DNA from: a virus
Taxonomy: Duplodnaviria; Caudoviricetes
Strand: one strand, 5' to 3'
Length of the DNA stretch: 64,000 nucleotides
Virus record (IMG/VR): IMGVR_UViG_3300042997_002652
Location: 202,968-266,967 of that record
Position numbers and translations under genes: made by a program. Below are positions 1 through 24,986 of the stretch, in pieces; position 1 is the stretch's first letter; the number at the start of each line of letters is the position of its first letter. The notes beneath the pieces are model-generated. The model did no database searches, was not told the DNA's origin, and was given only the letters and a program-made list of their open reading frames with translations.

Positions 1-3000
1 TATAAACTGTGTAGCGTTGTTGTCAAAAATAGTATCGTTTGTAAAATCTTCGTCATCAATAAAATCAAACGTAGTACCTTCATAACGAGTAGCTACTGGT
101 GCGCTAATCACTACAGAATCATATTCGTTGAATTGAACTACTGATCCAAACTGAGTAGGTCCAAATTCATGCGGGCAGTTAATAACTTGTGTGTTAGTAT
201 ATATTTCAATACCTAGTTCAGTTAATGTAGTGGTATCAACCGCTGTTATTATTAGTTTCTGATTAACCTGAGTTAGATCAGTATTAATAACTTGAATCAT
301 TAGTTTATTATCTACAGTAGCCGCTGCTTGAATGTTAGTAATATTAGCAGAATTAATAGCATTAGCTACAACTGTTGCGTTTCCTATTGGCACGTTAACA
401 AAGTATCCGTTAATTAGTAAAGGACGAACAGCAGTAACATTACATTCGTTTACTCCAGTTACTAAACCAAATTTTGCTCCAGCATTTGTAAATCTATAAA
501 CAGCACCTTCTTGGTTTTCGTCACTAATTTCAAAAGGAGATCCTATTAATATTTCAGAACCTGATTGAATAGTATCAAGTGAATAACCAAACTGAGTGCC
601 TACTCTATTATTATAATTTGATGTAAAGGTCTGCGCGTAAGTAAACTTACTATCGCTTACTGTGATAATATCACCTGCTGTCAATGTACCTGAGTAAACG
701 AACGTACTACCTATCACACCATAGTTGTTATCTTGAACTATTACGCCGTTTCTAGATACGTATAATGGTGAGGTTTGCACGGTAGCAGTTACGTTAGAAA
801 CAGATCCTACGGTAGATATTGCCTCAGGAGTAATAGATGATCTTGAAGTTTTTATTGTTATATCAGATCCTGCAATACTTCTTATGTAGTAAACACTATT
901 TCCTTGAATACCGGTACCAAGTAAACCAGTACCGCTAAAGATAATAGGATCATTAACTGCTATTCCAGATACACTGTTTAATGTGATCAAGTTTCCTGTG
1001 GCATTAGTAGCACTTACTGTTCGTGATACTGTTATAGGTGTCCATGCTAATTGGAAAGTTTGTCCTATTGTATTAAACTGAACTTCAATATTTTGAACTG
1101 CTCTAGAAAATGCAAAAGCACTTCCCCAGTTAGCAATGTTGCCATCATAGTCTTTATCAGGAGCGCCCACTACCATCACATCACCATAGTAGTTTGTAGT
1201 AATAGACTTGCTAAACTTATCAGTTGATGATACTAAGCTTAAAGCTACTCCGTTGATTATTGTTGACGCTTTGTAAGTGATCTGAGTTGCTGCACCGGTG
1301 CCGGTACCTACTCCTGTTGCAACAAACGTGATACCTACTTTGCTTTCAATCGCACCAATTAATGTAAAGTCAGTAGTACCTAAGTCAGTGATAACATAAG
1401 TTTGTCCGGAAACAAAATATCCTGCATTAAGCAATATGTTTTGTTTCTGATAAACATGTACCTTATCGTTTGCAATATCAGAAATATATAACCAATTTTG
1501 GTCTCCGGAAATAGCTAGTTCGCTACCCCAATCTGTTACTCCGCCGGGTGCAGCGATTGTTTGATAAAGAACAAAATCGTCTGACAACTGACTATCATTA
1601 ATTACATATACATGAACTTCTGAAGCAGTAGTAGGTTCAGAAATTACATAAGTGTTTCCTGCATAAACGATCTTAGAACCAAATGATGTTCCGCCGGTTA
1701 GTGTTTCTACGATAAAGTAATTGTTAGCAGAATCTTGAGCGTAACGATAAACTTCGCCTGCACTAGCATCGCTTATTAAATACCCTGCTTGATCAGTGTA
1801 CGCAACTGCGCTACCAAATGTAGTGCTGTTAGTTTTTGTTACTTCATTATTATACTGATAGTTCAAACTCTTTCTATATACAGCCCAACTACCGTCAGTG
1901 CTTTCGTCTACCCATACAGTATTTTTTACAAACTCTGTATCCAGTAGCGGTAGGTTATTAATACTAGCAGGATTGCTTACTCTTTGTGATTGGAATGTTA
2001 AACCAATACCTTGACCAGTGCTTGCAATTTCAGTAGCTACCGGTAAGTTAATAATCACTTCATTCAAGTTAACTATGTTAGCTACTATGTAATATCCGTC
2101 TACGTTTGTTGCATAGTTTATAATAGACAGAGGTTGCAGTCTTACTAAACCGTGAGGTTGAGCAAATGTTATTGTAGCAGTATTGTTTAGATTACTTCTT
2201 ACTGCTATTACTCTACCAACAGATGTCCAAGCTAATACATCCCAGTTTCCTAGATAGTTAGCTAACCAAGCGTAGTCTCTTACATAAAAATCATTAATAA
2301 GTACAGGCTCATTATTTTTATCTCTTGCTACTGGTAACCCTGAATAGAAATAAGAAGACATTTTAACATCATCAAAGTTTACATATCCAGCATCAGGATA
2401 TACTTGTGTTGGAGTAGAAGGATCAATAGTACTTAAAATATTAGGAGAGTCAATAGGTCTAGCATAATTGAACAAACTATATATAGGCACTTCTTGTTGA
2501 GAACCCGGAGTATAAACACCGTTAGTCAAGCTAACAATTGATGGATTACCTGTTAGATATTGTTCGTTGATTTTAAAATCTACAAAGTTTTTGTTTAATA
2601 GTCCACCAAACTCACCGCTTTTAATAGCCCAGTTTTCATAGACTTCATATTCAATACCACCTTGCGGTAAGGTAGCTCCTCTAAATGCTTCTATCGCATT
2701 ACGAGTACCTTTGTTTTTAATCAAGTTTTGATAAACGTTAATCTGAGTAATATCAGTTAAGTCTACTAATGCCATGTAGTCACGAGGTCTGTAACCTATC
2801 AGTGAGAATCCTAATAGGTCTGCATCGTTTTCTAAGTTAGCTTTGTTAGTGTCATAATATAACGCACTTTCATATGATCTAGTTGAAGAGTTAGGTAATA
2901 ATCCTTTTTGAATTTGATCGTAATCGGTTTCTTTCCAATCTCTTTCATTGAAAATATTGCTAGGCTCAATTACTTTTAATGCAGTCCAGTATTTGTTTTT

Positions 3001-6000
3001 ATAAAGTACAATTGATCCTTTAGTGTACTTGACTGCTCTTGACCATTCTTTTATGTTGTCTTGATTTAATATAAATCCTGAAGCGGTAATAGTTCCGTTC
3101 CATTCAGCGGTTTTAGTTCCTCTTACATATATTCTGTTTTGTCTTAACCCAGTAATTAAATTGTATATAGTATCATTAAACAATGTAGTATTATCAAATA
3201 CCACAGCATGTTCAAAGTTACTTAAATTAAACTGTCCATAAGAAACAGTGTCACCTTGATTAAGTGCGGTAACACTAAACTCAGTACCGTTTCTAAACAC
3301 GCTTAAGTCTTTTGCTTGTATTGGATACAAGTTTTGATTCAATACAAAATTAGTATTTTGTACAGTAAGCGGTTGAACAATTGAACTTTCTTTGTCAATT
3401 TTCAATGTTTGAGCAGATGGATTTAATAAAAGAATACTTCCTACTTCCCAGCCAGTTTGTGACCAGTATAAGAATTCACTGATCATTTGATCCCAGTTAA
3501 CTTCTATTCCACCTAAGACATCGTTGAATATCATACCTTGTGAAGTTAGATATGCACCGTAACTAGACAAGAACTGTGCTACTTCTTGTTCGCTATAAAA
3601 CTTAGCACCATAAGGAATTAATAATTCGTTAGCAGTATAATCAACTGCAACTTTTACCTGAGCATCTTCAACTTGAATGTTATTGTATTTACCATTGTTT
3701 ACTGGCTTCAATACTTTAAAGTATGCATTAGTTTGTGAATTACCAAATACAGTATAACCATCCTGTGTTATTTGTATTACAACTCCTGAGTATACAATTC
3801 TATCAAACGGTTGATTATCATAAAGAAGCAATGAATAACTTTCGTCTGGAATTAACAATGATGCGTTTCTACTGTTTGGAGTTCCTTTTTCTACATAGAA
3901 CTTTAGCAAGTTTTTATCGCTATACCCAGCCAAACGATAAATTAATCTTACATCAAGGTTATCAAGTAAGTTAGTAATATTTTCAGTAGCATTTATTCCT
4001 ATTTGCTTTTCGTAATCAACTATCCAGTTAATATAACTTGTTTTTGCAGTACCTGAACCATAGATTTCAACATCACTTATTACTAAATGACTTCTGTTGT
4101 TTACCAAGTATTGATTAAACTCTAAGTTATATTTGTAGTTGTCTACATCTACTCCCAAGTTAAAGAAGTTAGCAGGTTTCATTAATGCAAATATTCTCAT
4201 CAGATCAAAAGGATATGCTGAGCTTCTACGATAGCTTAATTCAACCGGGGCATCATCACCCACTTTCCAATCTCTTTGGAATGTATTAGGGTTGTAGTTT
4301 CCTACTATTGCAACAAACGGAGAAACTAAATTACCTGCACTGTCTACTGGAATGATATTAGTTAAGCCAGGACGAGCAACTGTTTCAACTGTAATAGGTA
4401 CTCCGTCATTCCAAATTACACCCTGTTCTAAATCATTCCAAAGAATTAAGTTATCACTAGTATAAGGCGCAGGACCATATCTTTCTGTCCACCAAGTTGG
4501 TTGATCAGTAAAACCTAACATTTCCCATGGCGTAGCATTAGGGGTTGTAGTATCATAAAAGTATTGATACACACCTCTCCAATAACCTTGCTCAATCGGT
4601 GTATTAGTTAATTTGTTAGCTGCATTGGTGTAATTGTAAGTAAATTCATTTACTTTAGAAAAAACCTGAGTTTTGTAATTTAATCTGTTTTGCCCTACCC
4701 AGTTTAAGAAACTTTCACTATACATTTGCAAGAATTCGCTATATGTATAGTCGGTATCTCTAAAGAATCCCGGTAGCACTTCATATGTTTGAATAGGTAC
4801 AGTGCTGCTTAATTTTAAGTTGTTATAAATTCTTGTTTCAAATTCTAATAAGCCCTGATCTCTAAAGTCTTCTAGAACACCCAAATTAGTGTTATAAGAT
4901 CCGTATAACTTATTATAAGAACCATCGTGTCCTTTAATAAAATATGTTGGTTGAGTATAAGCAGTGTCTAACACTACTTGAGGAGTATAAGCAGGATATA
5001 AACCTAATTTTGTTGGTGTGTTAGGAACATAACTACCATAAGTTTGATTATATTCTTTAATAGTAATCTTGTCACCCGCAATCAAGTCTAACGTAACAGT
5101 TAGTGACGGGGCATCTTGACTTATAACATAGTCTTGATTAATAATCAATTGTTTCTGTATAGTTACACCGCTTATTATTCTTGACAAATAAACAATAACA
5201 CCATTATAGTTAGCAGTAGCAAAGTTATATGTTGTAGTTAAGGGATAAATGCTTGTATCTAAATTGTTTGCAAAAGTATAAGTGTTGCTTCTTAATGGTG
5301 ACTTAGCAGGTAACATGTCGCTCCAAAAGAACGCTTGTGACTCACTTTTAGCCGCAGTAATAATATCAATAGCTTGATCTAGTATTTCTGAAGGCGTGTA
5401 TCGTTGTACATATTCTGCATTATTAATAGTATCTACTAATAGATTTTTAAACTTAGTGTATTCGTTGCTATTAAATTGTAACGCATCAAACAAGTTGTGA
5501 TTTGTTTTACGCAAGAATGTGCCGGGTAATACTAAAGAAGCACTATTTTGAATTATGTTAGTTCCATATGGAACTAAGTTACCTAAGTCTCTATAATTGT
5601 TTGATCCAAATACTTGACCTAACATACCGGGAGCATTTACATAAATGTCTCTGTATTGTAATCTAATATCACCAACGTTAACTGTTTCTAAGTCTTGGTT
5701 AAATGGATTGTTACTTAAGTTAACAGGTATTGTATAATATGCTTGATTACTAACTTGGTTACTTAATATTAAAACTTCAATTGGTGTATCACTATCCAAT
5801 TCAGAAACGTCTAATAATTCAATGATCGTAGAATTTGCAGTAATAGTGTATGAATATTCACTTACGCACTGGCAAGCATTGTTTATGTACACCTGTACAC
5901 TAGTCCAAGAATCTTGACCTTCTACTTCAGATATAGCAGCAATGTCGCATACAAATGTTGTACTAGGATTATCCTTTAGATATGTAAATTGAAATACTTG

Positions 6001-8970
6001 ATACTGCGCACTAGGTGCTACCGCGGTTTGCCAACCTAATTCTCTAGTATATTCAGTTCTGTCATCATAATTAAACACATAACCTGTGTTAACTTTTTGA
6101 GTTATAGGAGTAGTTCCAGTAACATAATCAAATGTATCAGTGTTTAACGAAACATCAAAACTAATATCACCTACATTATCAATAGCACTGTATCTTATAG
6201 GAAATCCTAAAATAGGATCATCGGTTCCAGAGCCTATGCCATAAGAAAATAATGTACAGCCGGCAAAAGAAGTACCTTGATAAATTGTTGGATCGCTAAA
6301 ACTTATACCGTTTTCATCAAATACATCAAATAACGGTGCTTGATTTACAGTAACTTTTTCTTGTGCTGTGATCCAATTATCGTTACTAAAATAATAAGTA
6401 TTACCTTGATTATTATATCCTCTAGTAATAACTGCTTGATCATTTTCTTCACACAAACCATCCTGAGCTTCAGTTAATGTAATAACCGGTACTGATGATG
6501 GGGATAATTGAGAAAGTGCAACAACATATATTTTATTGCGTACATTCACATCCGTGTCTGCTGCAAATATAATTCTTGCTCCAGAGAATATAGAGTAATT
6601 ATTAACTGTAGTGTCTGTTGCAATAACGGCTACACTAGTAGCTGAGCCAACAGATTGTGATACGGCCCAAGACACTGTTAATACAGTGTTATTACCTGCT
6701 ATGGTTATATTTGTAATTTGTGTGTTGTTAGGTAAAATATCTAAGTAATCACTAATATACTGCCCAACTTGGAACGTTCCTACAATATCAGCAGTAGGAA
6801 TAGTAATAGTAGTTGATGTTCCTACAACAGATGCTATAGATACTGTATTTTCTGTATATACTTCTACATCAGGAAAATAATTGTTTAATCCTGCAATTTG
6901 CGATAGTGCATCAGTTGTTCTTTGATCAATGAAATCTACTGCATCTTTGCCACGAGTACCTGAGTTGAATAATCCTAAATTAGGATAAAATTCAATAATA
7001 GGTCTTCTTGCTTTATTTTCTGCTTTAGCGAATTCAGTAACTATTGATGGATTATTATTATAAATCGCAGTTTGATTAATTACTTGCGAATGAAACCATC
7101 TGTTGCTTCTAGACCAAGCATTTTTGTTTATTGCGTTTCTAGCAATAGTAATATAATCTAAATCTGTTGGTATAAACAAATCACTATCAAAGTTTGATAA
7201 ATCAAACGGAGTAGTATCAAACGGGACAAAGGTACTTGTAGTAAAATCTTCAGGTGATACTAATGTTTCAACTGAAATTAGTTCTATTGCCGAACCTACA
7301 CCTTCTACGTAATATTGTCCGGATAAGTATCTTGACGGGATAACGTCACCGTCAAATTCTACTTTTAGTCCATTAGTAAACACAACACCATTTGTTGAAG
7401 TGTAATTCTTTTTACCTAAAATATCAGTTTCTACATTTATAGTATTCGTGGTATTATTTTCAATTATTCTAATAATACCTACTTTGTTTGCAGAAGTACC
7501 ATCTTGATAGTAAAGCTGATCAAGCGGTGCAGTAATATAAGGTACTAAAGAAACAACACCTAGCGTATTTCTATAAAATTGTCTGTCAATCCAAGTTGAG
7601 CCGTACGTAGCTGTTATTTTTTGTTCAGTTGGTATTAAACCGTCTGGTATTAATCTTATAATTGGATTTGTAGGATCTGAGGGATCTACTACATAAGTAA
7701 TTCTGTAAAAGTTTTCACTAACTGTTGTATAGAACCCTTCTTCATACAATCCTTGATTTGCGTTAGCGGTCATTGTTCCGCTATCAGTAGTAAGCGGAAA
7801 AGTTGCTCCACCTAATGTATCAGAAATAGTAAATTCCGTAGAACTGTCTACACTTTTAATATAATAAATTGTACCTGCTGTTACTCCACCAAATACTGGA
7901 TTGTTAAATGTAATAGTATTGTTAACTACTAGCTGACTAGTATTTCCAGTTGATAAAGTAAATCTATCAGTTGATGAATTAGAACTTCCTATTGTAACTA
8001 CTAAAGGAGCTACTAATGCATTATCATTCGTATCAAATGAAGTTTCATCGTAGTATGCAGAAATATAACCAATCTCATTAACTACACCTGTGTCATAAAA
8101 CATAACACGTAAGTTGTTCAATGAAGTAATACTATCAATTGACCCTAATGCTGACAACGGAGCACCGTTGACATCTTCAAATGGTAGTGTGCTTATCACA
8201 TCAACTAAGTTGTTACCGGGGAATATAAACTCATCTTGTGCATCTTTACTAGGTACTGTAAAAGTAACTACACCCTGAGTAGCTCCGTTATTACTAACAC
8301 CATATACATCTCGTACCGGCAAATTAGGTTGAGTAGGACTGAATCCTGATACACCGGGTTCTCCTTGTATCCAAAACTGTGATGGCTGATTTACTGTAAA
8401 TCTATACGAACCACCTCTTAATAAAGTGATAGTAGGATTGGTACTGCCAGCAGAAGCTCCCAGTTCTCTTATATTATAACCATTAGCTAAATCAGTAACT
8501 ATATAATCATTGGTTGAATAGACTAGTGCAGAAGACACAGTTACTGCGGGAGGACCAGTAGGTATCCAGTAATATTGATTGTAATTTACTATTTTGTCAA
8601 AATCAGTAAATGAATCCCATGAATAAATCTGACTTTCAAACAGTCTTGAATTATTATTAGTAATTCCTCCCTGCAATTCTAGTGCATCTAAAATACCGGG
8701 ATAGCTAATAAAATCTTGAGCAGTTGACTGATTAGTTTTTGTAAATACAACACCGGGATCTAGTTGATAGTCTGTTCTTGTTTTATTTGGTTCTGTTACA
8801 TAATAATCATTAGCATTAACACCATAACCTACTTTACTACCAATATATCCTTGTATCTTTTTTGTGATAGGAGGATTTACTAGCTGGTCTAGTGTTGCTG
8901 ACAAAAACTCAGTGTTGGTTTTTGTTTGAAAAATTTCGGGAAGAAAATTAAGAGTTCTTATTCTTGTCAT
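1..8970 (-). CDS. Giant virion baseplate protein, gp7-like, with FG-GAP/integrin-type beta-propeller repeats; partial (C-terminus runs off the window, >2990 aa)
   Basis: Not in the ORF track because it has no stop in the window. ATG at 8970 gives MTRIRTLNFLPEIFQTKTNTEFLSATLDQLVNPP. Manual spot translations at ~8400, 7200, 6000, 5400, 4440, 3960, 2700, 1500, 1140, 540 and 1 are all open in this frame. Lies directly after gp6, the gp7 position in T4. Contains YQNLIKNKGTRNAIEAF (gp7-like KGT motif) and FG-GAP-like repeats such as QFGYSLD..ILIGSP..GAVYRF. Confidence 0.85.
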   Translation of the reverse strand, partial: MTRIRTLNFLPEIFQTKTNTEFLSATLDQLVNPPITKKIQGYIGSKVGYGVNANDYYVTEPNKTRTDYQLDPGVVFTKTNQSTAQDFISYPGILDALELQGGITNNNSRLFESQIYSWDSFTDFDKIVNYNQYYWIPTGPPAVTVSSALVYSTNDYIVTDLANGYNIRELGASAGSTNPTITLLRGGSYRFTVNQPSQFWIQGEPGVSGFSPTQPNLPVRDVYGVSNNGATQGVVTFTVPSKDAQDEFIFPGNNLVDVISTLPFEDVNGAPLSALGSIDSITSLNNLRVMFYDTGVVNEIGYISAYYDETSFDTNDNALVAPLVVTIGSSNSSTDRFTLSTGNTSQLVVNNTITFNNPVFGGVTAGTIYYIKSVDSSTEFTISDTLGGATFPLTTDSGTMTANANQGLYEEGFYTTVSENFYRITYVVDPSDPTNPIIRLIPDGLIPTEQKITATYGSTWIDRQFYRNTLGVVSLVPYITAPLDQLYYQDGTSANKVGIIRIIENNTTNTINVETDILGKKNYTSTNGVVFTNGLKVEFDGDVIPSRYLSGQYYVEGVGSAIELISVETLVSPEDFTTSTFVPFDTTPFDLSNFDSDLFIPTDLDYITIARNAINKNAWSRSNRWFHSQVINQTAIYNNNPSIVTEFAKAENKARRPIIEFYPNLGLFNSGTRGKDAVDFIDQRTTDALSQIAGLNNYFPDVEVYTENTVSIASVVGTSTTITIPTADIVGTFQVGQYISDYLDILPNNTQITNITIAGNNTVLTVSWAVSQSVGSATSVAVIATDTTVNNYSIFSGARIIFAADTDVNVRNKIYVVALSQLSPSSVPVITLTEAQDGLCEENDQAVITRGYNNQGNTYYFSNDNWITAQEKVTVNQAPLFDVFDENGISFSDPTIYQGTSFAGCTLFSYGIGSGTDDPILGFPIRYSAIDNVGDISFDVSLNTDTFDYVTGTTPITQKVNTGYVFNYDDRTEYTRELGWQTAVAPSAQYQVFQFTYLKDNPSTTFVCDIAAISEVEGQDSWTSVQVYINNACQCVSEYSYTITANSTIIELLDVSELDSDTPIEVLILSNQVSNQAYYTIPVNLSNNPFNQDLETVNVGDIRLQYRDIYVNAPGMLGQVFGSNNYRDLGNLVPYGTNIIQNSASLVLPGTFLRKTNHNLFDALQFNSNEYTKFKNLLVDTINNAEYVQRYTPSEILDQAIDIITAAKSESQAFFWSDMLPAKSPLRSNTYTFANNLDTSIYPLTTTYNFATANYNGVIVYLSRIISGVTIQKQLIINQDYVISQDAPSLTVTLDLIAGDKITIKEYNQTYGSYVPNTPTKLGLYPAYTPQVVLDTAYTQPTYFIKGHDGSYNKLYGSYNTNLGVLEDFRDQGLLEFETRIYNNLKLSSTVPIQTYEVLPGFFRDTDYTYSEFLQMYSESFLNWVGQNRLNYKTQVFSKVNEFTYNYTNAANKLTNTPIEQGYWRGVYQYFYDTTTPNATPWEMLGFTDQPTWWTERYGPAPYTSDNLILWNDLEQGVIWNDGVPITVETVARPGLTNIIPVDSAGNLVSPFVAIVGNYNPNTFQRDWKVGDDAPVELSYRRSSAYPFDLMRIFALMKPANFFNLGVDVDNYKYNLEFNQYLVNNRSHLVISDVEIYGSGTAKTSYINWIVDYEKQIGINATENITNLLDNLDVRLIYRLAGYSDKNLLKFYVEKGTPNSRNASLLIPDESYSLLLYDNQPFDRIVYSGVVIQITQDGYTVFGNSQTNAYFKVLKPVNNGKYNNIQVEDAQVKVAVDYTANELLIPYGAKFYSEQEVAQFLSSYGAYLTSQGMIFNDVLGGIEVNWDQMISEFLYWSQTGWEVGSILLLNPSAQTLKIDKESSIVQPLTVQNTNFVLNQNLYPIQAKDLSVFRNGTEFSVTALNQGDTVSYGQFNLSNFEHAVVFDNTTLFNDTIYNLITGLRQNRIYVRGTKTAEWNGTITASGFILNQDNIKEWSRAVKYTKGSIVLYKNKYWTALKVIEPSNIFNERDWKETDYDQIQKGLLPNSSTRSYESALYYDTNKANLENDADLLGFSLIGYRPRDYMALVDLTDITQINVYQNLIKNKGTRNAIEAFRGATLPQGGIEYEVYENWAIKSGEFGGLLNKNFVDFKINEQYLTGNPSIVSLTNGVYTPGSQQEVPIYSLFNYARPIDSPNILSTIDPSTPTQVYPDAGYVNFDDVKMSSYFYSGLPVARDKNNEPVLINDFYVRDYAWLANYLGNWDVLAWTSVGRVIAVRSNLNNTATITFAQPHGLVRLQPLSIINYATNVDGYYIVANIVNLNEVIINLPVATEIASTGQGIGLTFQSQRVSNPASINNLPLLDTEFVKNTVWVDESTDGSWAVYRKSLNYQYNNEVTKTNSTTFGSAVAYTDQAGYLISDASAGEVYRYAQDSANNYFIVETLTGGTSFGSKIVYAGNTYVISEPTTASEVHVYVINDSQLSDDFVLYQTIAAPGGVTDWGSELAISGDQNWLYISDIANDKVHVYQKQNILLNAGYFVSGQTYVITDLGTTDFTLIGAIESKVGITFVATGVGTGTGAATQITYKASTIINGVALSLVSSTDKFSKSITTNYYGDVMVVGAPDKDYDGNIANWGSAFAFSRAVQNIEVQFNTIGQTFQLAWTPITVSRTVSATNATGNLITLNSVSGIAVNDPIIFSGTGLLGTGIQGNSVYYIRSIAGSDITIKTSRSSITPEAISTVGSVSNVTATVQTSPLYVSRNGVIVQDNNYGVIGSTFVYSGTLTAGDIITVSDSKFTYAQTFTSNYNNRVGTQFGYSLDTIQSGSEILIGSPFEISDENQEGAVYRFTNAGAKFGLVTGVNECNVTAVRPLLINGYFVNVPIGNATVVANAINSANITNIQAAATVDNKLMIQVINTDLTQVNQKLIITAVDTTTLTELGIEIYTNTQVINCPHEFGPTQFGSVVQFNEYDSVVISAPVATRYEGTTFDFIDDEDFTNDTIFDNNATQFI

Positions 8971-23727: not shown

Positions 23728-24261
23728 ATGACATCACCACAAAAAGCAAAAGGTAATTCTTGGGAAAGAACAGTCGCTATATATCTTAGCGACTTATATC
23801 AATCCAGCTTTCATAGAATCCCTAATTCAGGAGCTTATGTTGGTGGAAAGAATTCTGTAAGAAAAGAATCTCTTGACACGAACCAAGTAAAGTCTTTTAA
23901 AGGTGATATAGCTGCTCCAGATTCATGGGTTAACTTCAATTGTGAATGTAAATCTTATGGAGACTTCCCGTTTCATCAAGTTCTAGCAGGTAGCTGTAAA
24001 CAACTTGATGGATGGTTAGAACAGTTAATGGCAGTAGCAGATAAAGACGATCTAAACATTTTGTTTGTTAAGATCAATCGCAAAGGTAAGTTTATCGCTG
24101 TTCAAACTAAGTACACATGGGTTACTGACCAGTTTATGTACTATACATCTAAAAATCAGGGTGATTGGATTCTCGTTGACTTTGATCATTTTTTTAATCA
24201 TAATAAAGACCTTCTTAAAGTATATTCAAACTCTAATTCTCAACCCGACACCAAGTCATAA
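23728..24261 (+). CDS. PD-(D/E)xK nuclease, Hjc-type Holliday junction resolvase-like
   Basis: KAKGNSWER..FHRIPNSG..GDI..NCECK matches the Hjc pattern (K-G-x-x-x-E-R, D, E-x-K); follows gp46. Confidence 0.7.
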   Translation: MTSPQKAKGNSWERTVAIYLSDLYQSSFHRIPNSGAYVGGKNSVRKESLDTNQVKSFKGDIAAPDSWVNFNCECKSYGDFPFHQVLAGSCKQLDGWLEQLMAVADKDDLNILFVKINRKGKFIAVQTKYTWVTDQFMYYTSKNQGDWILVDFDHFFNHNKDLLKVYSNSNSQPDTKS

Positions 24262-24270
24262 TTATTAACA

Positions 24271-24750
24271 ATTCGTTTAGTCGGGATAGCCCGACTCTCC
24301 TTGAGACTGCTAGCATAGTGCTATTGCCGTTGGATTCTGGAGTAAGCGTACAATCTAGTAGTAATTGATTGTACGGAACACCGACAGGGCTCTCGTTATG
24401 TGTGCGAACCCTGAATGAGTCTATATTTTATTCTATCTTGCGGATATAGAACATGCGTTGCTGAAGCGATAGTGATTTGTTCACTATTAGTCTTCAACTA
24501 CAGTCCCAGCAAACCTTACAGAGCAACCGGTGGCGTTAGGTAGCTAAACGGCTAACTCTAACGGGGAACAGATGGCAAAGGCGAGAGGCCGCAAGGAATC
24601 TTAACCAGTGGTAGTGCTGTTTAGCACTACCATGGCTTCAAGACTGCAATGATTTAAACCCCAGATATAATTTAATCAATATGATACCGAAATGAGTATG
24701 AGCAAAGCGAATACGAATGAGTGTATCAGTTGTCCGTAAGGACAACTTTT
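24271..24750 (+). ncRNA. Putative large structured non-coding RNA of unknown family
   Basis: The only ~500-nt gene-free gap in the window and visibly richer in G+C than its flanks. About ten stems can be read directly, e.g. AGTCGGG/CCCGACT (24279-24296), CGTACAATC/GATTGTACG (24347-24375), TGGTAGTGCT/AGCACTACCA (24609-24632) and AGTTGTCC-GTAA-GGACAACT (24728-24747). G-U wobbles and a GNRA loop favour the + strand. Confidence 0.75.
24728..24750 (+). terminator. Intrinsic terminator-like hairpin closing the structured element
   Basis: Perfect 8-bp stem with GTAA tetraloop followed by TTT, just before the stop of the converging minus-strand gene. Confidence 0.65.
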
Positions 24751-24758
24751 AATATAGA

Positions 24759-24986
24759 TTAAAAGAATGGAAGTTTAGATTTCTTTGTTGTTTCTAAGTT
24801 GGATTCAATTAGTTCACTTACTAATTTTCTTTCCGGTGCAGATAAATTAAGGGCGTCTGTATATGACAGTCCGCCCCTAGAATACCATGAAAAAGAAAGT
24901 GCTTGTCTTTTTATCTCAATACATTCTTTTTCTAGCTGGTCAATCAGGCTCTTTATATCCTCAGGGGCTAAACTAAGGAGCCTCAT
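24759..24986 (-). CDS. Small protein downstream of gp26 (gp51-like baseplate hub assembly factor by position)
   Basis: 75 aa, ATGA-coupled to gp26; T4 has gp51 next to gp26. Assignment is positional. Confidence 0.5.
   Translation of the reverse strand: MRLLSLAPEDIKSLIDQLEKECIEIKRQALSFSWYSRGGLSYTDALNLSAPERKLVSELIESNLETTKKSKLPFF

Follow-up and report, generated by a model that had tools for sequence, protein, structure and literature searches.

A structured RNA of uncultured jumbo phages with two predicted adjacent pseudoknots resembles, but does not match, known large ornate RNAs

Large ornate RNAs with no assigned function are uncommon. For three of them, GOLLD, ROOL and OLE, recent structures have revealed unexpected RNA-only assemblies. 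H-type pseudoknots, in which a hairpin loop pairs with a downstream strand, are found in tmRNA, in P4 of RNase P and at viral frameshift sites, and kissing-loop complexes are formed by the HIV-1 DIS and by ColE1 RNA I/II. GNRA tetraloop hairpins can take part in tetraloop-receptor docking. The RNA analysed here is similar in kind to the large ornate RNAs known from bacteria and phages (GOLLD, ROOL, OLE, raiA), but matches none of their models. With GOLLD and ROOL, and also with OLE and raiA, it shares a length of several hundred nt, a multi-domain organization and long-range covarying pairings between loops and strands, as well as carriage by phages or prophages, the lack of a known function and its discovery by comparative genomics. 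In contrast to these RNAs it has another helix order, is smaller (about 470 nt), gives no covariance-model match and occupies one fixed syntenic slot behind a PD-(D/E)xK gene in a single jumbo-phage lineage. What is new is a base-pair-level map of two adjacent pseudoknots, each supported by compensatory changes, in an RNA of ~470 nt that is not yet catalogued.

The window, i.e. the whole stretch of 64,000 nucleotides that was analysed, comes from a 267-kb IMG/VR virus entry with a T4-like gene set. Its nuclease gene is followed by a gap of ~500 nt without a conserved ORF, and this gap holds the complementarity under study as well as the RNA to which it belongs (Table 1). A preliminary description of the region, made from the letters of the window, had noted that CTTGCGG in the loop of a hairpin is the exact complement of CCGCAAG 150 nt away, and had read this match as a tertiary kissing or pseudoknot contact within a large folded RNA rather than a mere cluster of terminators.

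Homologues were collected along several routes. Distant-mode blastn with the RNA gave zero matches among GenBank phages (50,697 records). Anchoring on the nuclease protein in IMG/VR yielded 21 loci, in 15 of which nhmmer located the RNA directly downstream of the gene, and a search pattern taken from the invariant P10 hairpin led to more than 117 further viral contigs. Full-length copies of the RNA number about 112, of which 88 are distinct, with 56-86% identity to the window (nhmmer). P10 is invariant also in the protein-anchored set, which had no selection for it; in the larger set its invariance is a matter of ascertainment because P10 served as the search pattern there. Scanning metagenomes with the pattern returned 120 loci, and the only true family members among them, L208 and L217, belong to the 6-member clade of the window. 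Across about 185,000 species genomes the P10 pattern had a single match, in a Chlorobiaceae MAG (L140), which we rejected as a chance match since nhmmer was negative. In the collections searched, all members of the RNA family thus come from a single lineage of uncultured jumbo phages.

The surroundings of the RNA are conserved along with it. Nearly all recovered flanks show the same order of gp47, gp46, nuclease, RNA, converging small ORF and gp53-like gene. Wherever a homologue locus extends far enough, the nuclease gene sits immediately upstream of the RNA; the one exception is L084, where no match was found. At least a hundred uncultured jumbo phages keep the RNA in this one genomic slot. 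In more distant loci (L017-L021) the same gap holds a different-looking structured RNA that can be aligned in the 3′ tail only; this tail, at 24699-24721 in the window, is the sole part of the RNA matched there.

Comparison with catalogued RNAs gave no assignment. Nothing in the whole window reached a gathering score in Rfam 15 (4227 models), whose models, we take it, include GOLLD, ROOL, OLE, raiA, HEARO, RNase P, tmRNA and group I/II introns. Within 24100-24900 at E <= 10 there were two sub-threshold Rfam matches (20 nt and 49 nt), both far under gathering scores, and seven other family members gave no Rfam match at E <= 1. ARAGORN found no tRNA or tmRNA gene in the 64-kb window, and by ARAGORN and Rfam the RNA is without homology to tmRNA, RNase P or viral frameshift sites. 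An RNase P, considered for the P4-like GUCC and ACAGA motifs, and a group I intron, considered for a P3-P7 order, were both ruled out by the helix order together with the lack of a model match. A riboswitch was set aside since the same strand carries no downstream gene ahead of the terminator. We also considered a guide RNA for the neighbouring nuclease, and nothing spoke for it or against it. The RNA is not described in the full-text literature and recent preprints that were searched. Our working view is that it may act as a stand-alone folded RNA or as the core of an RNP, and that it would be supplied either by the end of the recombination-gene transcript or by a promoter of its own. A sigma-70-like site lies at 24176-24204, which is no more than chance would give in this region, and the window shows no enrichment of the T4 late-promoter motif TATAAATA, with 6 occurrences against 11.4 expected.

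Based on the homologues, we mapped the fold of the RNA using RNAalifold, MI and pair counts. The RNA has a folding z-score of -4.1, and its G-U pairs, together with the U-run that follows the last hairpin, place it on the plus strand. An intrinsic terminator, found by terminator scan on the plus strand only, closes it on the 3′ side, and the terminator stem itself covaries (98% paired, up to 5 pair types). P4 encloses a central four-helix domain that contains P5/P5a, P6 and P7. The TCTATAT/ATATAGA hairpin of the preliminary description (24420-24426 with 24444-24450) is borne out as part of P6, which covaries throughout: both sides have changed in all 12 of its pairs, and the pair 24426-24444 has the highest MI of the whole RNA. 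The stem ends with G24443-U24427 (96% paired, 4 pair types), and a further U-G pair at 24428/24442 is weak (38% paired). Inside P7 lie a variable hairpin, P7a, and a conserved ACUACAGUCCC...UUACAG strand. In a separate pair count, eight of nine P8 pairs reach 94-100% pairing and show up to 6 pair types. As P2 is invariant, covariation is silent on it either way. An A/U-rich linker separates the P10 domain from the small 3′ hairpin. The domain of P9, P10 and box B aligns poorly with MAFFT, and the fold given for the wider 3′ domain is tentative.

Table 1. Features of the RNA and of its locus in the window (positions count from the first letter of the window)
Feature	Position	Strand	Remarks
gp47-like and gp46-like genes		+	in the window
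PD-(D/E)xK (PDDEXK_15) nuclease gene	23728-24261	+	Pfam E = 4.7e-25; upstream of the RNA
Whole structured non-coding RNA (predicted)	24268-24751	+	about 470-480 nt; 5′ end approximate, 3′ end from the terminator
P1 hairpin	24279-24296	+	MI pairs 24280-82/24293-95; 94-100% paired, 2-4 pair types
P2	24297-24342 (24297-24304 with 24336-42)	+	CUCC(UU)GA with UC(U)GGAG; 100% paired, invariant
P2a variable hairpin	24305-24331	+	enclosed by P2
P3 variable hairpin	24347-24375	+	24347-50/24372-75 93-98% paired, 3-5 pair types
P4	24379-24383 with 24528-24532	+	98.9% paired; both sides changed in 3 of 5 pairs
P5/P5a hairpin	24385-24413	+	100% and 99.6% paired; both sides changed in 6 of 8 pairs
P6 hairpin (TCTATAT/ATATAGA)	24415-24454 (24415-17/24452-54 and 24420-27/24443-50)	+	94% paired
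PK2 5′ strand, CUAUCU	24433-24438	+	in the P6 loop; pairs with 24570-24575 (AGAUGG)
Segment 1, CUUGCGG	24437-24443	+	last 2 nt of PK2, linker UGCG (24439-42) and stem base G24443
P7	24457-24527 (24457-62 with 24522-27)	+	96.8% paired; both sides changed in 4 of 6 pairs
PK1 5′ strand, UCCC	24504-24507	+	in the P7 internal loop; pairs with GGGA 24564-24567
P8 hairpin	24534-24563	+	both sides changed in 8 of 11 pairs
Receiving strand for both knots	24564-24575	+	PK1 3′ strand 24564-67, AC spacer, PK2 3′ strand 24570-75
P9 arm	24580-24606	+	outer GG/CC pairing tentative
Segment 2, CCGCAAG	24589-24595	+	P9 closing pairs and GNRA tetraloop; twin box A
P10	24609-24632	+	invariant 10-bp hairpin UGGUAGUGCU-GUUU-AGCACUACCA, then invariant UGGCUUC
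Twin box B, CUGCAAU	24644-24650	+	after P10
Small conserved hairpin region (GAGCnnAGCGAA type)	24699-24721	+	register uncertain; pair 24702-24718 99% paired
Intrinsic terminator	24728-24751 (stem-loop 24728-24747)	+	8-bp stem, GUAA loop, UUUU
75-codon ORF and gp53-like baseplate gene		-	converging, beyond the gap

The P6 loop is engaged in a long-range pairing, termed PK2, and right beside it on the receiving strand lies a second one, PK1, which comes from the P7 interior. PK2 is 97% paired with both sides changed in five of six pairs, and PK1 is 93% paired with both sides changed in all four. Pair states in PK2 alternate between UA (49) and CG (35), GC (44) and AU (39), and CG (64) and UA (19), and across the family the two strands read, among others, CUGUC/GACGG, UCGUU/AACGA, UUGAU/AUCAA, CUGCU/AGCAG and AUGUU/AACAU. 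When MI is computed for all column pairs, 24433-24575 ranks fifth, and 24435-24573, 24437-24571 and 24436-24572 are listed as well. Three PK2 pairs each show at least 14-17 state changes on a tree built without these columns, and by this tree test the compensatory changes are repeated and independent rather than one inherited event. Independent contrasts point the same way, with seven of seven in the same direction (p = 0.016). Even within the window's own 6-member clade the pair 24435/24573 flips between A-U and G-C. The first pair of PK1 occurs as UA (55), CG (14), AU (8) and GC (3), with 18 state changes on the tree.

Taken together, PK1 and PK2 are 95.4% paired compared with 82.6% in shuffles. 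Their covariation of 0.484 is reached by 0 of 500 shuffles, which give 0.230, and no slid register exceeds 0.144; both partners have changed in 145 cells, versus 42.8 in shuffles. PK2 crosses P4 and P7 from within the P6 loop, and since P4, P6 and P7 all covary as well, PK1 and PK2 are true crossings. In isolation, the duplexes of the window copy have energies of -4.1 (PK2) and -4.4 kcal/mol (PK1). As in an H-type pseudoknot, bases of the P6 loop pair outside their own hairpin, with P6 as stem 1, the 6 bp of PK2 as stem 2 and short flanking loops. Unlike the classic form, a connector of ~120 nt holds P7, the 3′ strand of P4 and P8, and PK1 adjoins. Comparative analysis of the sequences indicates that the region is one large, multi-helix, doubly knotted RNA that belongs to an uncatalogued family; the preference for a large folded RNA over a cluster of terminators is upheld by the many helices, their covariation and the double knot.

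The complementarity that first drew attention to the P6 loop has a different standing. Its letters are as had been reported: CTTGCGG (24437-24443) and CCGCAAG (24589-24595) are fully complementary, and T24436/G24596 adds a flanking U-G pair. The placement of CTTGCGG in the hairpin loop is correct for 24437-42 only, as G24443 belongs to the P6 stem. The loop does knot over a long range, but its partner is PK2's 3′ strand, 14-25 bases upstream of the one that had been proposed. In the 476-nt RNA there are five exact 7-mer complements at long range (>60 nt), compared with 5.5 +/- 3.2 in dinucleotide shuffles, 98.6% of which contain at least one.

We examined the proposed helix in alignment A2, which comprises 321 core columns and 88 distinct sequences, with partner shuffling among sequences and slid registers as controls. 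Among the cells of the eight proposed pairs, 54.8% are paired, where shuffling gives 53.7 +/- 0.7%, and there is no excess of covariation (0.118 versus 0.119 shuffled, with registers slid by -2 or +3 equal). Of 87 sequences, 6 have the central pair C24441-G24591, for which independent contrasts give p = 1. Poor alignment of the P9 region limits the power of column-based tests there. We therefore added an alignment-free test of the best complementarity between the 8 nt equivalent to 24436-43 and the whole stretch from PK2 to P10, taken within a sequence or across different sequences. The WC run was 3.89 for own and 3.85 for cross comparisons (permutation p = 0.27), and in this set a 7-bp match was present in the window and L003 only. 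Within the 6-member clade, CCGCAAG is constant while the loop strand has changed twice, each time uncompensated in the partner segment: C24441 to A in L002 and L041, and G24443 to A in L217, the latter being compensated inside the P6 stem. The contact named in the preliminary description fails because the two segments vary independently in homologues and do not undergo the compensatory changes that had been put forward as its check. Its likeness to kissing loops is confined to the window sequence, in which seven complementary bases lie partly in two hairpin caps. In contrast to kissing loops, the partners are not both free loops, since only four of the seven bases of segment 1 are free and segment 2 takes in the pairs that close its tetraloop, and the pairing lacks covariation and is gone beyond a few close relatives. 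The match between 24436-43 and 24589-96 is thus very probably a coincidence in a few close relatives, the P6 loop forming PK2 instead with PK1 adjacent. Mutate-and-rescue or oligomer tests on 24437-24443/24589-24595 would then probe a coincidence; PK1, PK2, the P10 hairpin and the twin boxes offer defined mutants for testing, in a family whose core is by now well supported and whose strand and 3′ end are clear.

Other readings were weighed against the same data. That the region is a protein-coding or DNA-level element has a negligible probability. An ATG-started ORF of 42 codons (42 aa) is present at 24415-24543, and the P10 stem is invariant on both arms like a DNA palindrome that might bind protein; however, the ATG is gone in 30 of 88 homologues, where AUG becomes ACA within a covarying pair, both partners have changed in dozens of pairs, G-U pairing is seen for the plus strand only, and the unit is closed by a terminator. 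It is very improbable that the helix 24436-43/24589-96 is real in this phage and its nearest relatives, be it as a tertiary contact or as a conformer that competes with PK2 and P9, i.e. a switch. With -11.6 kcal/mol in isolation for the window copy it is far more stable than PK2 or PK1, so this duplex could compete in vitro or be a clade-specific conformer, and the window, L003 and L208 have it complete, with 6 bp left in L217. Yet it forms in only 3-4 of about 90 distinct sequences, meets an uncompensated central A-G mismatch in relatives as close as L002 and L041 (85-87% identical) and rests on a 7-mer match of chance-level frequency. To form, it would also have to displace PK2, one pair of P6 and the P9 cap, and of these PK2 and P6 are backed by compensatory changes. 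A family-wide contact of 2-3 bp between the P6 linker (U24439-G24440) and the P9 cap (C24592-A24593), of which the 7 bp of the window would be an extension, is unlikely. UUG (24438-40) and CAA (24592-94) are complementary in 78-100% of aligned sequences, and because both are nearly invariant such a contact is beyond the reach of covariation. Against it, neither own-versus-cross complementarity nor covariation gives a signal, U24438 is already taken by PK2 (98% paired), and the linker still reads UUGA or UUUG where the P9 cap is without CAA (L051, L084, L093) or has CAU instead (L035, L055, L058, L101, L102).

The covariation that argues for PK1 and PK2 would be the same for intramolecular and intermolecular pairing, and there is a small chance that one or both are bridges between RNA copies, leading to dimers or larger assemblies, much as the preliminary description had suggested for its own pairing. 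A precedent exists in ROOL and GOLLD, where covarying pairs taken as tertiary (J6/8-L8 and L20-J13/15, respectively) proved to be intermolecular by cryo-EM (bioRxiv 10.1101/2024.12.08.627333). By analogy, PK1/PK2 might bridge copies of the present RNA into a dimer or cage, and the twin boxes flanking P10 would then be two identical recognition sites on the assembly, a picture to which we give only a slim chance. The knot geometry is, however, sterically ordinary in one chain by our reading, no observation demands a second chain, and the intramolecular reading is more economical. We infer that PK1 and PK2 form within a single molecule; with 4-5 nt and 4 nt in the loops flanking the 6-bp stem, and some 120 nt of connector, a single-chain knot is feasible by ordinary loop-length considerations. 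In this single-chain fold, the strand running out of the P4-closed domain after P8 would be linked by PK1 and PK2 to the P6 loop and the P7 interior, which both lie inside that domain. Both knots would clamp the four-helix junction into one compact core, from which the 3′ domain with P9, P10 and the twin boxes probably projects.

The segment that had been proposed as the partner of the P6 loop has a local structure of its own. In the window clade the apical hairpin of P9 reads GAGA-GG-CC[GCAA]GG-AA-UCUU (24583-24602) with tandem G-A, and folds locally with an MFE of -8.1 kcal/mol at a frequency of 0.69. The cap C24590-[GCAA]-G24595 appears in both MFE and centroid folds as a GNRA tetraloop, which family-wide is only GNRA-like: the window has CC[GCAA]GG and some relatives have GUAA or GCAA caps, and in folds of family members the cap is usually GCAA, GGCA, GGCAA or GCAAA. 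Most members carry GGCA, GGCAA or GCAAA, and, unlike ordinary GNRA caps, the cap co-varies by identity with box B. The variant sequences contained no consistent site that could serve as a third internal box pairing with the twin boxes, and the P6 linker does not track the changes of the boxes. Boxes A and B themselves vary in parallel and stay alike, as in CGGTAAT, GGCATG(T), AGTAAT, GATAAT, GGCAG, AAGCAG, GTTGAA and AGCAAT(AT). The longest common word shared by the two boxes of one sequence is longer than that shared by boxes taken from different sequences, a difference reached in 0 of 2000 permutations, and the base 2-3 positions upstream of the boxes also changes in parallel, with GGGC/AAGC against GGTC/AATC.

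The 10-bp stem of helix P10 and the UGGCUUC that follows it (24609-24639) are invariant on both strands, including in the protein-anchored set, i.e. the loci collected by matching the nuclease protein with no use of the RNA sequence. Unlike P10, the other stems of the RNA vary in this set. Because both strands are invariant where other stems vary, the conservation suggests that the P10 region is recognised sequence-specifically, by a protein or through alternative pairing, and is not constrained merely by maintenance of the helix.

P10 is flanked by two short boxes that change in parallel between phages while keeping their mutual likeness, as seen in the window and the homologue loci compared with it (variants include CGGTAAT, GGCATG, GATAAT, AAGCAG and GTTGAA). 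A partner complementary to these twin boxes was sought inside the RNA and none was found. They may represent two identical recognition sites on either side of P10.

Coordinates of the twin boxes, the P2 strands and the gene-free gaps of distant relatives
Feature	Position	Sequence or location	Remark
Twin box A	24589-24595	P9 cap	same columns compared in L002-L136
Twin box B	24644-24650	~10 nt downstream of the invariant hairpin P10	same columns compared in L002-L136
P2, first strand	24296-24305	CCUCCUUGAG	paired with second strand
P2, second strand	24336-24344	UCUGGAGUA	paired with first strand
Gap, L017	3517-3895		
Gap, L019	1773-2260		
Gap, L020	3517-3990		
Gap, L021	3517-3990		

Helix P2 shows no variation on either strand in the protein-anchored set, and its pairs are of one type throughout all 88 homologues. 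Its invariant first strand matches the anti-Shine-Dalgarno core of 16S rRNA exactly, and the invariant partner strand is Shine-Dalgarno-like. We also observed a three-way covariation, in which G/A24532 is kept complementary to both C/U24379 (P4) and C/U24515 (a strand within P7); positions 24514 and 24533 are 96% paired. The pattern could reflect a base triple, a tertiary contact of 2 bp or alternative pairing with the P4 end.

Upstream of P1, GACACCA(A/C)GTC is conserved as the last stretch of the nuclease gene, at 24245-24261 in the window and at the corresponding site of almost all homologue loci. It encodes the protein end ...DTKS/DTTS before the stop and is a small inverted repeat in its own right. 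In many homologues TATAAAAAT(T) follows the gene end, 10-15 nt upstream of P1; it is absent from the window copy. A sigma-70-like TTGACT-17-CATAAT (10/12) lies within the nuclease gene's 3' end (24176-24204), ~70 nt before P1; sites of this kind are about as numerous in the region as expected by chance.

Four more distant loci (nuclease 53-56% identical) have a gap without genes of 380-690 nt in the same slot, carrying a different, G+C-richer structured sequence. They match the window's RNA family only in the 3' tail, made up of the GAGCGAnAGCGAA hairpin and the terminator (nhmmer E about 1e-3), and share motifs among themselves, e.g. GAGGTACCGnACAACCGCCTC and TTTGCCCnnnnGGGCAAAG. Their structured sequence is probably a diverged sister class.

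Elsewhere in the window, a single open frame of >2990 codons occupies the baseplate region on the - strand (1-8970) and continues past the window edge.
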